Position numbers and translations under genes: made by a program | Notes under the pieces: model-generated | Told to the model about the DNA's origin: nothing | The model's database searches: none | The model's input: only the letters and a program-made list of their open reading frames with translations | In this document: piece by piece, positions 21,858 to 24,386 of the stretch | Layout of the letters: each line of letters begins with the position of its first letter | Numbering within the stretch: the first letter of the stretch is position 1 | NCBI RefSeq assembly: GCF_001677475.2 | Contig: NZ_CP015229.1 | Direction: 5' to 3' (one strand) | From: Escherichia coli | GTDB taxonomy: Bacteria; Pseudomonadota; Gammaproteobacteria; Enterobacterales; Enterobacteriaceae | DNA length: 64,000 bases

Positions 21858-23056
21858 TCGAATATCCCCGAATAATCATTTAGCATTTTTAACTATTAAA
21901 TTTACAGAGTTTCGGTCAATTCCTGCATCTTCACCACCTGGCTCAACTTTCTCCTTGTTCGTTGCACCAGGCCAGTTCCTTACCCGGATCAGGTTATTTG
22001 TTTTCGTAAGTATTGCCTCCGCTCAGCAACCTGAAGAGATAAAAGCAATAATAATGCAGAAATCAGCATCCGGGATAAAAAAGACCGATGGTTCCAGTAT
22101 GAGTTTTGCGCTTCAGATACTACGCACCTGCAACATGCTTTTTAGCAAAATAAAAACCTTTTGTTCATTGTATATCAACAATTGTCCAGCAACCTCCTGT
22201 CGATGCCTCCCACCATTTTTGCAATGGCACGCTACCGCCCTCCCGGAATTTACCTGCGTCAACAGGCACCAGAGCCCTGAGCAAAAAATAAACCATTTTC
22301 GACTGATTTAAATTTGACCATTATGGAATAATGATCAACAAAACATTAATATTACAGATATATCGAACAATACAACAGCAGCATACTGCTTATTATTCTG
22401 ACAATGATCACAAAACCAAAACACCGGTCAGCCCACTGATTTTGTTGCTGAACCCGGTATATCCACCGGTTTTCCACAGCCCGGGAGGAAGAGAGCATCA
22501 TAAGGCGTGATAGTGCCTCCGAACTCCACGGCTCCCTGAAAGCCCCCACCGGACTGCCATCCGGTATCAGCAGAAACTTTTCCGCAAATTAATAAAGAAA
22601 GAGAAAAGACAATAATAAGTAAAATATCAATTACAGCATCCTGACGCACATCCACTCCCCTCTGAGACTCCTTCACCTGTATTATTCACTCGTGGTGAAA
22701 TTTCTTTTATTTTTCTGTAAACCTCACTGAAGTCATCTTCCACCATTACATGACCTTCAATTCCCCTGATATGAAGTTCACAAAAAATACCTTTCTGAAC
22801 GACGAAACTGATATCTTTTATATTCACCAGAAGATTTCGCCCCTGCCTGCTGACAAAGTGAATAAACACGTCTGCCACTCAACACAAAAACATGAACAAA
22901 AGAATAAAAAACAAAAAAAGTCGAAGTTAAGAAGAAAAACTCTGCCGGAGTCTGAAAAATGCGATGTGGCACATCATTTGTCAGAAATAAAATGAAATTA
23001 CTTAAATGTATTTAATTTTATTTTTCAGGAGTGACTTACTGATTACACAGCTGGCG

Positions 23057-23815
23057 TTACCTGTACTCACAACAAAATGTATCCACTTTTTCCGGTCTGC
23101 CGAAATAAAACCCCTGCAGATAATCCACCCCCATAGAGCACAGACAGTTCACCTGCGCCTGTGTTTCCACACCTTCTGCCACCGTATCAATACCCAGCTT
23201 TCCTGCCAGCCCGACAATACTTTCCACGATATGCCGGGATGTCTTTTCACTCAGAATGTCCTGTGTGAAGCTTCTGTCCATTTTTATATAACTGACCGGG
23301 AAGTGCTTCAGGTACGACAGTACGGAACATCCGGTTCCGAAATCATCCAGCGCAAATGCCACTCCGGCATCACTCAGCCGGCTCAGTTTCTCTTCGGTCT
23401 GTCTGTCCATGTTAAACGGCTGCTGCTCCGTCAGCTCCAGAACCAGATGTATGCTGTCATGCCCTGCCAGCGCCAGACACATCTGAGTGAACTCACGCTC
23501 AGCCAGCAGGGCCGGCGTCACGTTCACGGCAAGCCGGAAACCACGCGGCAGCATGGCTTTAACCTCCGAAAGCCCTGCCACCGCACGGTTCAGGATTTTT
23601 TCCGTCACAGGCAACAACAGACCGGCAGATTCCACCCGGTTAATGAAATATGCCGGCGGAAGGATTTCTCCCGTCGGCATATGCCAGCGAACCAGAAGCT
23701 CTGCACCGGACATAGTAAGGTTGGATGCAGAAACCACCGGCTGGAGATACGGTTCAAACTCCCCGTTACTGAGCGCACGCATCAGTCTGTCTGCGGATAC
23801 AAAATCACTGTCCAT
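23057..23815 (-). CDS. EAL-domain c-di-GMP phosphodiesterase (stand-alone, MrkJ-like)
   Basis: 252 aa with conserved EAL-domain residues: E of the EAL motif in GAELLVRW, NVTP, ELTEQ, DDFGTG, KMD, EGVETQAQ, QGFYFGRP. Confidence 0.85.
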   Translation of the reverse strand: MDSDFVSADRLMRALSNGEFEPYLQPVVSASNLTMSGAELLVRWHMPTGEILPPAYFINRVESAGLLLPVTEKILNRAVAGLSEVKAMLPRGFRLAVNVTPALLAEREFTQMCLALAGHDSIHLVLELTEQQPFNMDRQTEEKLSRLSDAGVAFALDDFGTGCSVLSYLKHFPVSYIKMDRSFTQDILSEKTSRHIVESIVGLAGKLGIDTVAEGVETQAQVNCLCSMGVDYLQGFYFGRPEKVDTFCCEYR

Positions 23816-24386
23816 ACTGTCGGTCTTCCATTTTATGAACCTCCCGGTCCAGCCCGGTCATCAACAGCATCCTGAAATCCCTGACGCCCACATTCTCTGC
23901 CAGCCGGGCATAATGCCAGTACAGCCCCCGTTCACTCTGTTTCAGATTCAGGGGACGGTCTCTTCCTCTCTCAGAAAGACGCTTCAGTGCCTGTCGTTGT
24001 CCGGACGTCAGGCGGAATTTACCGGTACGGGCTGTCTTTCTGTTCAGTGCCATGCGGACAGTTCTTTCCAGGCACGACAGCGACATGCATCCGCTGTACA
24101 CCGGGCAGATATTTCGCAACACCTTCAGCATTTCCAGCCTTTCCGGTACCAGAACCAGCATTTCACCGGGCATTTCTGCCCTCAGTTCACGTATCCAGGA
24201 CAGATGACGCCCCCAGCCCGTAACAGGCTCTGCACTCAGCGCCACAATAATCAGGTCCCAGCCATGCCGGGCACAGGGATACCCCGGAGGTACACGGTAA
24301 ACGTTGTGGCCCTGTGCGGATAACAGGTGCCACAGCCCTGTCAGCTCATACCAGCAGGTTCCGGTCAGAAGGATTTTTTGCCTCAT
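23805..24386 (-). CDS. LuxR-family transcriptional regulator (MrkI-like), translationally coupled to the EAL gene
   Basis: About 193 aa from ATG at 24386 (MRQKILLTGTCWYEL...), preceded by GAAGG SD. C-terminal LuxR-type HTH (LTSGQRQALKRLSERG...). Stop overlaps the EAL start. The ORF-track start at 24488 is an upstream GTG extension. Confidence 0.6.
   Translation of the reverse strand: MRQKILLTGTCWYELTGLWHLLSAQGHNVYRVPPGYPCARHGWDLIIVALSAEPVTGWGRHLSWIRELRAEMPGEMLVLVPERLEMLKVLRNICPVYSGCMSLSCLERTVRMALNRKTARTGKFRLTSGQRQALKRLSERGRDRPLNLKQSERGLYWHYARLAENVGVRDFRMLLMTGLDREVHKMEDRQYGQ

Follow-up and report, generated by a model that had tools for sequence, protein, structure and literature searches.

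A KlfK-family gene overlapping a stand-alone EAL gene at the distal end of a K88-type fimbrial cluster in Escherichia coli

Two overlapping genes behind the last fimbrial gene

The 64,000-nt stretch of Escherichia coli DNA analysed here (contig NZ_CP015229.1 of assembly GCF_001677475.2, hereafter the window) has, on the minus strand of an island, a complete chaperone-usher cluster of the K88/F4 type, as seen in Pfam scans of its open reading frames (ORFs), and this report concerns the two small genes that follow it. Directly after the last fimbrial gene, which is faeJ-like, come gene X (23805-24386), encoding a 193-aa protein of the KlfK family with a predicted pseudo-receiver domain and a degenerate LuxR-like C-terminal domain, and then a stand-alone EAL gene (23057-23815, 252 aa); both lie on the minus strand and are co-directional with the fimbrial genes. 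A preliminary description of the locus, made from the letters of the sequence, had proposed that a regulator gene overlaps an EAL gene directly downstream of the last fimbrial gene, and the pair proved to be real. The stop codon of X (TGA, 23805-23807) lies inside the start of the EAL ORF (ATG at 23815), giving an overlap of 11 nt (ATGGACAGTGA), and the pair follows the faeJ-like gene at 24520-25323.

The reading frame of X is open to 24446/24488. We prefer the ATG at 24386 as its start because it is preceded by GAAGG, because conservation in the family begins there and because PGAP uses the same start in strain MEW. Both genes show purifying selection when compared with close loci, with pN/pS values of 0.06-0.28 for X and 0.17-0.53 for the EAL gene. 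In G+C content (0.56 for X, 0.53 for the EAL gene) the pair resembles faeJ (0.58) and not the spacer that follows it (0.35). Crude consensus scans from faeJ to the EAL stop gave no promoter- or terminator-like sites above those of shuffled sequence, so that a promoter or terminator belonging to the pair itself was rejected, and the two regions flanking the pair show no significant structure, folding no better than shuffles (z about -1.1). Because no promoter or terminator signal stands above chance, the flanks are unstructured and the G+C content matches that of the operon, we infer that the pair is co-transcribed with the fimbrial genes.

The region originally described reached from 22627 to 24386, of which the upper part (23057-24386) corresponds to the gene pair. 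The lower 430 bp (22627-23056) lie outside both X and the EAL gene and are spacer, AT-rich DNA that serves the next subunit gene as leader or promoter region. The AT-rich spacer itself (22677-23056, 35% G+C) separates the EAL gene from that subunit gene and holds most of an 83-codon ORF on the minus strand (22627-22878). The frame of this ORF is open in all five related loci compared (such loci are cited below by number, L001 and so on), its start codon is kept in only one of four (L001), and most pairwise comparisons give a pN/pS of 0.5-1.0; to judge from this pattern of conservation, it is probably no gene. Next comes a second F4-family subunit gene, present as a 5' fragment of 82 codons (22428-22676, minus strand), with related islands sharing homology only as far as about 22422. 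Where islands are intact, this place holds a full subunit gene of 294 aa with an AT-rich leader of its own (L003, 11344-12228), followed by an S6 (SPATE) autotransporter protease (L003, 7410-11306). The K88-like cluster, X and the EAL gene, the extra subunit and the SPATE gene form a module that recurs on plasmids and islands.

The EAL protein

The EAL-only product matches Pfam PF00563 over residues 9-241 of 252 and profile positions 2-236 of 236 (1.4e-64). It contains E39 (in the motif ELL), R43, N98, E127, E130, D157, D158, K178, D180, E214, E217 and Q234, and its catalytic, metal-, substrate- and base-contacting residues align with their equivalents in YahA/PdeL. Loop 6, of the DFG(T/A)GYSS-like type, reads DDFGTGCSVLSYL, in which DDFGTG is present and Cys replaces Tyr. 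In the EAL partners of L005 and L018, which share 48-50% identity with the window protein, the catalytic residues are invariant. The earlier statement that the catalytic residues appear conserved is therefore borne out by the full set, and from these residues the protein is probably a catalytically competent enzyme that degrades cyclic di-GMP (c-di-GMP).

Its top match in the PDB is YahA/PdeL (8.5e-53), with 40% identity over 249 residues to the EAL domain of PdeL, an active enzyme (E 3e-63). Closer relatives form a clade of proteins of about 250-270 aa, ranging from 97% down to 50% identity. Beyond this clade similarity falls to about 40-44%, a level shared by CSS-motif EAL enzymes, which are about as close to the window protein as PdeL is. 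A PADLOC search with the X and EAL proteins gave no match, and an anti-phage defence role for either was rejected on this ground.

Protein X, a probable diverged relative of FixJ/NarL regulators

X has no Pfam or NCBIfam match even at E 0.1-1. In an AlphaFold2 model (pLDDT 79.5, pTM 0.74) residues 24-134 (numbered in a 213-aa form of the protein) make up a (beta-alpha)5 domain, with four helices after it, and full-length Foldseek matches of the model are weak (E 0.006-0.03) and include VpsT, EvgA and RcsB. On this model we are confident in assigning a receiver (CheY-like) fold to the N-terminal domain. The position of the phospho-acceptor is occupied by Ala in X and, among 53 family members, by Ala in 35, Cys in 6, Thr in 4 and Ser in 4; the acidic DD pair and equivalents of the Thr and Lys of receivers are absent from X. 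The same loops carry a set of residues that is near-invariant in these 53 members (G9, C11, Y/F13, E14, S51, P54, W58, P81 and G99). By its residues X is predicted to be a pseudo-receiver that cannot be phosphorylated.

For the C-terminal domain we used two profiles, A1, built from the close relatives of X, and A3, covering the C-terminal domain in the wider family, which takes in P0213 and other members with a more canonical helix-turn-helix (HTH). Compared with the PDB, A3 matched the DNA-binding domain of RcsB (2.8e-4), full-length RcsB (2e-3), the PdeL HTH (0.018) and GerE (0.24), and in hhalign it matched the PdeL HTH at 1.7e-4 and a PdeL-type GerE protein at 3.2e-5. P0213, the most distant member and the only one with a Pfam GerE match (7.6e-11), aligns in register with X (E 6.8e-5); relative to it X has a 3-residue deletion and a proline in the scaffold helix of the HTH. 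Many distant members keep a textbook recognition helix of the form ...KT(V/I)Y.HR....LGF. A1 scored E 0.56 against PdeL, and the idea that the X subfamily is a split-off PdeL HTH was dropped because this profile has no similarity to PdeL and only the broad family profile shows a generic LuxR-HTH similarity.

We read X as a descendant of FixJ/NarL-type regulators whose competence in DNA binding is uncertain. The term LuxR-type, used for X in the preliminary description, stands in this wider sense, by fold and family profile; as a direct assignment it falls, since the protein and its close subfamily fail every direct LuxR/GerE test, the phospho-acceptor Asp is missing and the model has a loop in place of an HTH helix.

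Neighbourhoods of the X family and recurrence of the pair

The 115 close homologues of X, from Escherichia, Shigella, Salmonella, Citrobacter and Edwardsiella, are all annotated as hypothetical proteins. An exhaustive profile search of 1.8 billion representative proteins returned only 111 clusters, and the ten that were looked up are all unnamed. With tblastn, relatives of X were found on 313 plasmids, of which 193 come from Salmonella and 113 from Escherichia; those on pESI and other Salmonella plasmids share 41-42% identity over 92% of X. The pESI homologue lies between the last minor subunit gene and a FaeA-like gene, a layout also seen in L012 and L013, and is klfK, an assignment made by position and gene order, not by accession. 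In the published account KlfK is a conserved hypothetical protein to which no function is assigned, and its gene was never mutated (PMC5560535).

Relatives of X occupy the distal end of K88-like clusters in E. coli (L006 and L007, followed by a SPATE gene) and on Salmonella plasmids (L012 and L013). More distant ones adjoin a Cof/Longus-like type IVb pilus cluster (L008, 1527-2099), lie inside another chaperone-usher operon directly after its PapB gene (L009, 1595-2281), or stand beside an AraC gene and a giant-adhesin locus with a type I secretion system near soxRS in Salmonella (L014 and L015, 10001-10669). The X/KlfK family consistently tracks adhesin loci of unrelated assembly types.

At least three diverged lineages have an X-EAL pair, that of the window and those of L005 and L018. 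The L005 proteins share 35% (X) and 48% (EAL) identity with the window proteins, and the overlap is again exactly 11 nt; upstream of this pair are a terminator-like hairpin and an AT-rich leader, with no adjacent fimbrial gene, on a contig that begins 157 bp upstream, so that a fimbrial gene farther away is possible. In L018 the identities are 40% and 50%, and the two genes are separated by a gap of 18 nt. DNA of the pair was found in 96 of 5426 complete E. coli genomes, and 80 of the 105 places are on plasmids.

A sister lineage has a different partner. In L027 (E. coli plasmid contig WSIT01000028.1, 3615-10798) a TibC-like glycosyltransferase and a 1427-aa TibA/AIDA-like autotransporter are followed downstream by a split PdeL, consisting of a 106-aa canonical GerE protein, a gap of 378 nt and a 265-aa EAL protein. 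The GerE protein shares 46% identity with the HTH domain at the N-terminus of PdeL (E 4e-21), and the EAL protein is 69% identical to that of the window. Only in this lineage is the picture of a split PdeL literal. Because the L027 locus is literally a split PdeL beside an adhesin, we regard an HTH-type partner together with this EAL clade at a mobile adhesin locus as a recurring design, of which the window has the version with a KlfK-type partner.

Comparison with known systems

According to the preliminary description the pair mirrors mrkIJ of the type 3 fimbriae of Klebsiella pneumoniae, which is right for gene content and not for organisation. Compared by gene content, layout and published descriptions, both systems place the gene for a FixJ/LuxR-family protein (about 195 aa) directly ahead of one for an EAL-only protein (about 240-250 aa), beside a chaperone-usher cluster. 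MrkI also resembles X in being without the c-di-GMP motif of VpsT (PMC3161979). In Klebsiella the genes mrkH-I-J run convergently to mrkABCDF; mrkI shares a transcript with the PilZ gene mrkH, and mrkJ has a transcript of its own (PMC3161979, PMC5023117). The window pair runs in the direction of the fimbrial genes, its two members overlap by 11 nt, and a PilZ gene corresponding to mrkH is missing. Domain databases recognise MrkI as a LuxR protein but not X, and the fimbriae belong to the K88/kappa clade here and to type 3 in Mrk.

Among solved structures the EAL protein matches PdeL (YahA) of E. coli K-12 best, and in PdeL, too, an HTH-type module lies upstream of the EAL module. PdeL is however one polypeptide, where the window has two overlapping genes, and X adds a pseudo-receiver; the close-family profile of X, as noted, has no match to PdeL. 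KlfK of the K88-like Klf fimbriae on Salmonella pESI is about 41% identical to X and holds the same place after the last K88-type subunit genes, but the Klf cluster has no EAL gene, and FaeA-like KlfA follows KlfK. As an uncharacterised protein KlfK supplies a name for X and no function.

In position the pair resembles SfaX/SfaY (PdeY), PapX and FocX/FocY, where, in pathogenic E. coli, a phase-variable operon of Pap type carries genes for a regulator and an EAL phosphodiesterase at its promoter-distal end. The layout of the S-fimbrial operon with SfaX/SfaY at its distal end was reportedly given by Sjostrom et al. in 2009. SfaX and PapX are of MarR type and not receiver/LuxR-like, and the comparison is one of layout; the SfaX/SfaY parallel fits a coupling of fimbrial state to other behaviours as proposed below. 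SfaY is a fimbria-linked phosphodiesterase (PMC5635171, PMC3487979).

EAL enzymes among fimbrial regulatory genes, where they repress or modulate the fimbriae, are also found in fimY-stm0551-fimW of Salmonella Typhimurium, in FimK of Klebsiella and in RcsB/PvrR at cupD of Pseudomonas aeruginosa (PMC3487979, PMC9487511, PMC2696094), and CupD shares with the window the combination of a LuxR-type regulator and an EAL protein on a mobile island. None of these enzymes has an overlapping pseudo-receiver partner: STM0551 is a truncated protein of 11.4 kDa, FimK a fused HTH-EAL protein and PvrR a REC-EAL fusion under histidine-kinase control. Atypical FixJ/LuxR regulators of the VpsT/CsgD type resemble X in joining a receiver-like to a LuxR-type domain without conventional phosphorylation, and VpsT is among the weak Foldseek matches mentioned above. 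The c-di-GMP motif of VpsT, W[FLM][TS]R, is however absent from 53 of 53 X-family members, and X was rejected as a VpsT-like c-di-GMP binder on this ground. Closer reference points than Mrk are PdeL for the enzyme, KlfK for the partner and SfaX/SfaY for the distal position in the operon.

Proposed role of the pair

The fimbrial operon is preceded by a putative phase switch. Between the divergent genes for a FaeA/PapI-type regulator (33333-33539, plus strand; Pfam FaeA 1.4e-29) and a PapB/FaeB-type regulator (32462-32761, minus strand; Pfam PapB 1.4e-37), the latter being the first gene of the operon, lies an AT-rich regulatory region (32762-33332, 31% G+C) with GATC sites at 32900 in CGATCTTT and at 33003 in AAGATCGT, 103 bp apart. 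A GATC spacing of about 103 bp is a hallmark of the Dam/Lrp phase switches of the pap/fae/daa/sfa family, and by analogy with these systems we infer that the region functions as a Pap-type phase switch. A third GATC of the region is at 33080.

Building on the demonstrated gene structure, domain identities, conservation and recurrent pairing, we propose that X and the EAL gene act as the two distal genes of what would be a Pap-type phase-variable, K88-like operon on a mobile island. In the ON state of the operon both genes would most likely be expressed from one shared transcript, with translation of X and EAL possibly coupled through the 11-nt overlap. The EAL protein, a sensor-less and presumably competent phosphodiesterase of a PdeL-related clade, would lower c-di-GMP in fimbriated cells. 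X may be a phosphorylation-independent FixJ/NarL descendant, with a receiver fold whose "active-site" face has been re-purposed and a stripped-down LuxR-like C-terminal domain. It would serve as the regulatory partner of the EAL protein: it might direct or control the enzyme by a putative contact, the two forming a PdeL-like unit of two genes, or its presumed targets might be other regulators or promoters. The net effect would be a coupling of the fimbrial ON state to behaviours under c-di-GMP control, such as motility, curli/cellulose and other adhesins, with possible feedback on the fimbriae. We hold this model, in which the pair is co-made in ON cells, EAL lowers c-di-GMP and X directs or modulates it or acts on other regulators, with about even confidence.

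Receptors for c-di-GMP were looked for in the window. No PilZ domain was found by Pfam in any island ORF scanned, the ORF at 22.3-23.0 kb included, in agreement with the earlier remark that there is no PilZ gene nearby, and the PilZ motif RxxxR...(D/N)xSxxG is absent from X, from the X family and from the 83-codon ORF. That ORF was rejected as a PilZ candidate for its lack of any Pfam or NCBIfam match and of the motif, together with the poor conservation described above. A c-di-GMP riboswitch as an alternative receptor was likewise rejected, with none in the window at Rfam gathering thresholds.

A number of results weigh against the proposed model. By the PilZ and riboswitch searches no c-di-GMP receptor is encoded locally. 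X has no PDB sequence match, whether searched alone or as the close-family profile A1, and no LuxR protein was found in this way; a GerE domain is undetectable by Pfam and NCBIfam in the protein itself. In a model of the isolated C-terminal domain (pLDDT 85.8) residues 17-25, at the position of the scaffold (first) helix of the HTH, form a loop, and Foldseek gave no significant match for this domain, the best TM-scores of 0.51-0.55 being to the LuxR-type domains of DosR/LiaR with E above 6. Because of this loop in the model and the lack of a significant structural match, DNA binding by X appears doubtful. Most X-family members are without an accompanying EAL gene, and at least 80% of the pair is present in only 18 of the 5426 complete E. 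coli genomes. Some lineages do without one or the other gene: L022 has lost X by deletion, L004 has an internal stop in X, and in L023 the EAL gene is frameshifted. A search with a concatenated X+EAL query (E 1e-20) gave no natural fusion among the 120 best-scoring of 6222 matches, the highest query coverage being 70%; Rosetta-stone evidence for the pair was set aside, there being no fusion among the best-scoring matches listed.

The preliminary description had taken the pair to imply second-messenger regulation of the fae-like fimbriae themselves, and by analogy c-di-GMP control of these fimbriae is plausible. In its explicit form the EAL protein would repress its own fimbriae, in a negative feedback of the Mrk or STM0551 kind, by depleting c-di-GMP from a receptor encoded elsewhere, and X would activate or co-activate the fae-like promoter. 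This we consider a minor but real possibility. It is in line with the mrkI-mrkJ-like gene content beside a chaperone-usher cluster (PMC3161979), with the repression of the linked fimbriae by each of MrkJ, FimK and STM0551 (PMC3487979) and with the intact catalytic residues of the EAL protein. Yet there is no PilZ or other receptor in the island, orientation and transcription layout are unlike Mrk, and the fae-like operon comes with regulators of its own, PapB/FaeA, and with a Pap-like GATC switch. The EAL clade also occurs beside a TibA-like autotransporter and relatives of X beside unrelated adhesins, which argues against a role specific to the K88 promoter.

Alternatively, X could be a non-DNA-binding protein-protein adaptor or anti-activator that titrates or partners a NarL/FixJ regulator such as RcsB, or acts in the manner of FimW on FimZ, with the EAL gene as an independent passenger. 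Partners of RcsB include RcsA, BglJ and MatA. The degenerate scaffold helix of X, with its 3-residue deletion and proline, the best PDB links, which are to RcsB, the conservation of the receiver face without phosphorylation residues and the many family members that have no EAL gene all suit such an adaptor, as does the precedent of FimW, which acts by binding FimZ (PMC3487979). We nevertheless find it improbable: the 11-nt overlap with the EAL gene is kept across deep divergence, which argues for a functional link where the two are paired, and more distant members keep the canonical recognition helix, one of them with a true GerE domain.

It is similarly a long shot that X and EAL form a two-gene PdeL-like switch responsive to c-di-GMP, in which a pseudo-receiver of the KlfK family would have taken over the task of sensing or targeting. 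The conserved, non-phosphorylatable face of this domain (G9, C11, Y13, E14, S51, W58, P81 and G99) would then be a binding site for a small ligand, be it c-di-GMP, pGpG or a different signal, or for the EAL protein. If so, the KlfK family would be an unrecognised class of adhesin-locus regulators that K88-like fimbriae, giant adhesins and type IVb pili have in common throughout the Enterobacteriaceae, the epidemic plasmid pESI of Salmonella included.

That the pair is decaying cargo of a mosaic island, with no current role in this strain, is very unlikely. In favour of this reading are the insertion sequence (IS) elements that flank and interrupt the island, the truncation of the F4 subunit downstream, the loss of the SPATE gene, the inactivation of X or EAL in several related loci and the rarity of the pair in E. 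coli. Against it, the two ORFs of the window are intact and under purifying selection, and the full fimbrial operon is intact with its regulators.

Relation to earlier work and significance

That an EAL enzyme can be embedded in a fimbrial locus is established, with MrkJ, SfaY, FimK and STM0551, as well as PvrR, as precedents (PMC3161979, PMC3487979, PMC2696094). In the searchable library we found no paper on an EAL or c-di-GMP phosphodiesterase in K88/F4-like clusters; the E. coli survey that names PdeX and PdeY lies outside this library. This survey, by Povolotsky and Hengge in 2016, is said to have named extra E. coli EAL genes (PdeX, PdeY and others). As far as we found, an overlapping pseudo-receiver partner from an unannotated, adhesin-associated family has no earlier description.

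The X family is labelled hypothetical in every source examined, and it includes KlfK of the globally spreading Salmonella pESI and genes beside type IVb pili of the kind found in enterotoxigenic E. coli. Should the pair link the fimbrial ON state to c-di-GMP behaviour as proposed, it would be a mobile, plasmid-borne input to the c-di-GMP network of E. coli and Salmonella, and would provide the first functional handle on the KlfK family. The conserved non-phospho site of the pseudo-receiver is a concrete target for ligand or partner screens.

The fimbrial operon and the surrounding island

Downstream of the PapB/FaeB-type gene, the operon continues on the minus strand with a FaeC-like minor subunit (31912-32454), whose Pfam Fimbrial match is weak (0.0066) and whose syntenic gene in L001 and L003 is annotated as fimbrial protein. 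It is followed by a FaeD-like usher (29454-31931; Pfam Usher 5.5e-95, PapC_N 4e-20) and a FaeE-like periplasmic chaperone (Pfam PapD_N 4.6e-31), for which 28670-29545 is the ORF span, the true start being probably internal. A FaeF-like minor subunit (28144-28635; Pfam DUF5462 2.3e-67) precedes the candidate major subunit in FaeG position (27104-27895; Fimbrial_K88 8.5e-54), which lies in a segment of low G+C content (0.418). The remaining subunits are FaeH-like (26102-26905; Fimbrial_K88 6.4e-77), FaeI-like (25310-26098; Fimbrial_K88 2.2e-76) and FaeJ-like, the last having a weak Fimbrial_K88 match (5e-4) and DNA that is 92% identical to faeJ of L001, L003 and L004.

The chromosomal segment ansB-yggM-yggN-trmB in the window is 98.9% identical to E. 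coli genomes, with a tRNA-Phe at positions 1391-1466, and the IS-rich mosaic island begins shortly past yggM. This left edge is marked by a truncated permease-like ORF (13325-13951) and, behind it, an IS66-family element of three ORFs (14077-15669, 15700-16050 and 16047-16466). An isolated 146-aa ORF with an ImpA_N domain of type VI secretion (17242-17682, minus strand; 1.1e-18) is probably a remnant, and no further type VI secretion genes were noticed among the scanned ORFs neighbouring it. Two minus-strand genes that adjoin the fimbrial island are likely to serve in anti-phage defence: one encodes a NERD+UvrD helicase (18076-19863) matching the PADLOC candidate model C3a187 (1.1e-142), the other a PD-Lambda-1 homologue (20056-21300; PADLOC 3.8e-88, Pfam T5orf172/MUG113). 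A 133-aa ORF at 21456-21857 (minus strand) has a signal-peptide-like N-terminus and matches NCBIfam PRK10040, a hypothetical protein, over its first 58 residues only (1.4e-23).

On the other side, immediately upstream of the fimbrial regulators, an IS21-like insertion with istA-like (34217-35716) and IstB (35713-36468) genes divides an ISL3-family transposase gene into a zinc-ribbon part (33810-34139) and a DDE part (36622-37482). Another IS element is indicated by an Rfam IS102 RNA match of 74.8 bits at 51947-52183 (plus strand).

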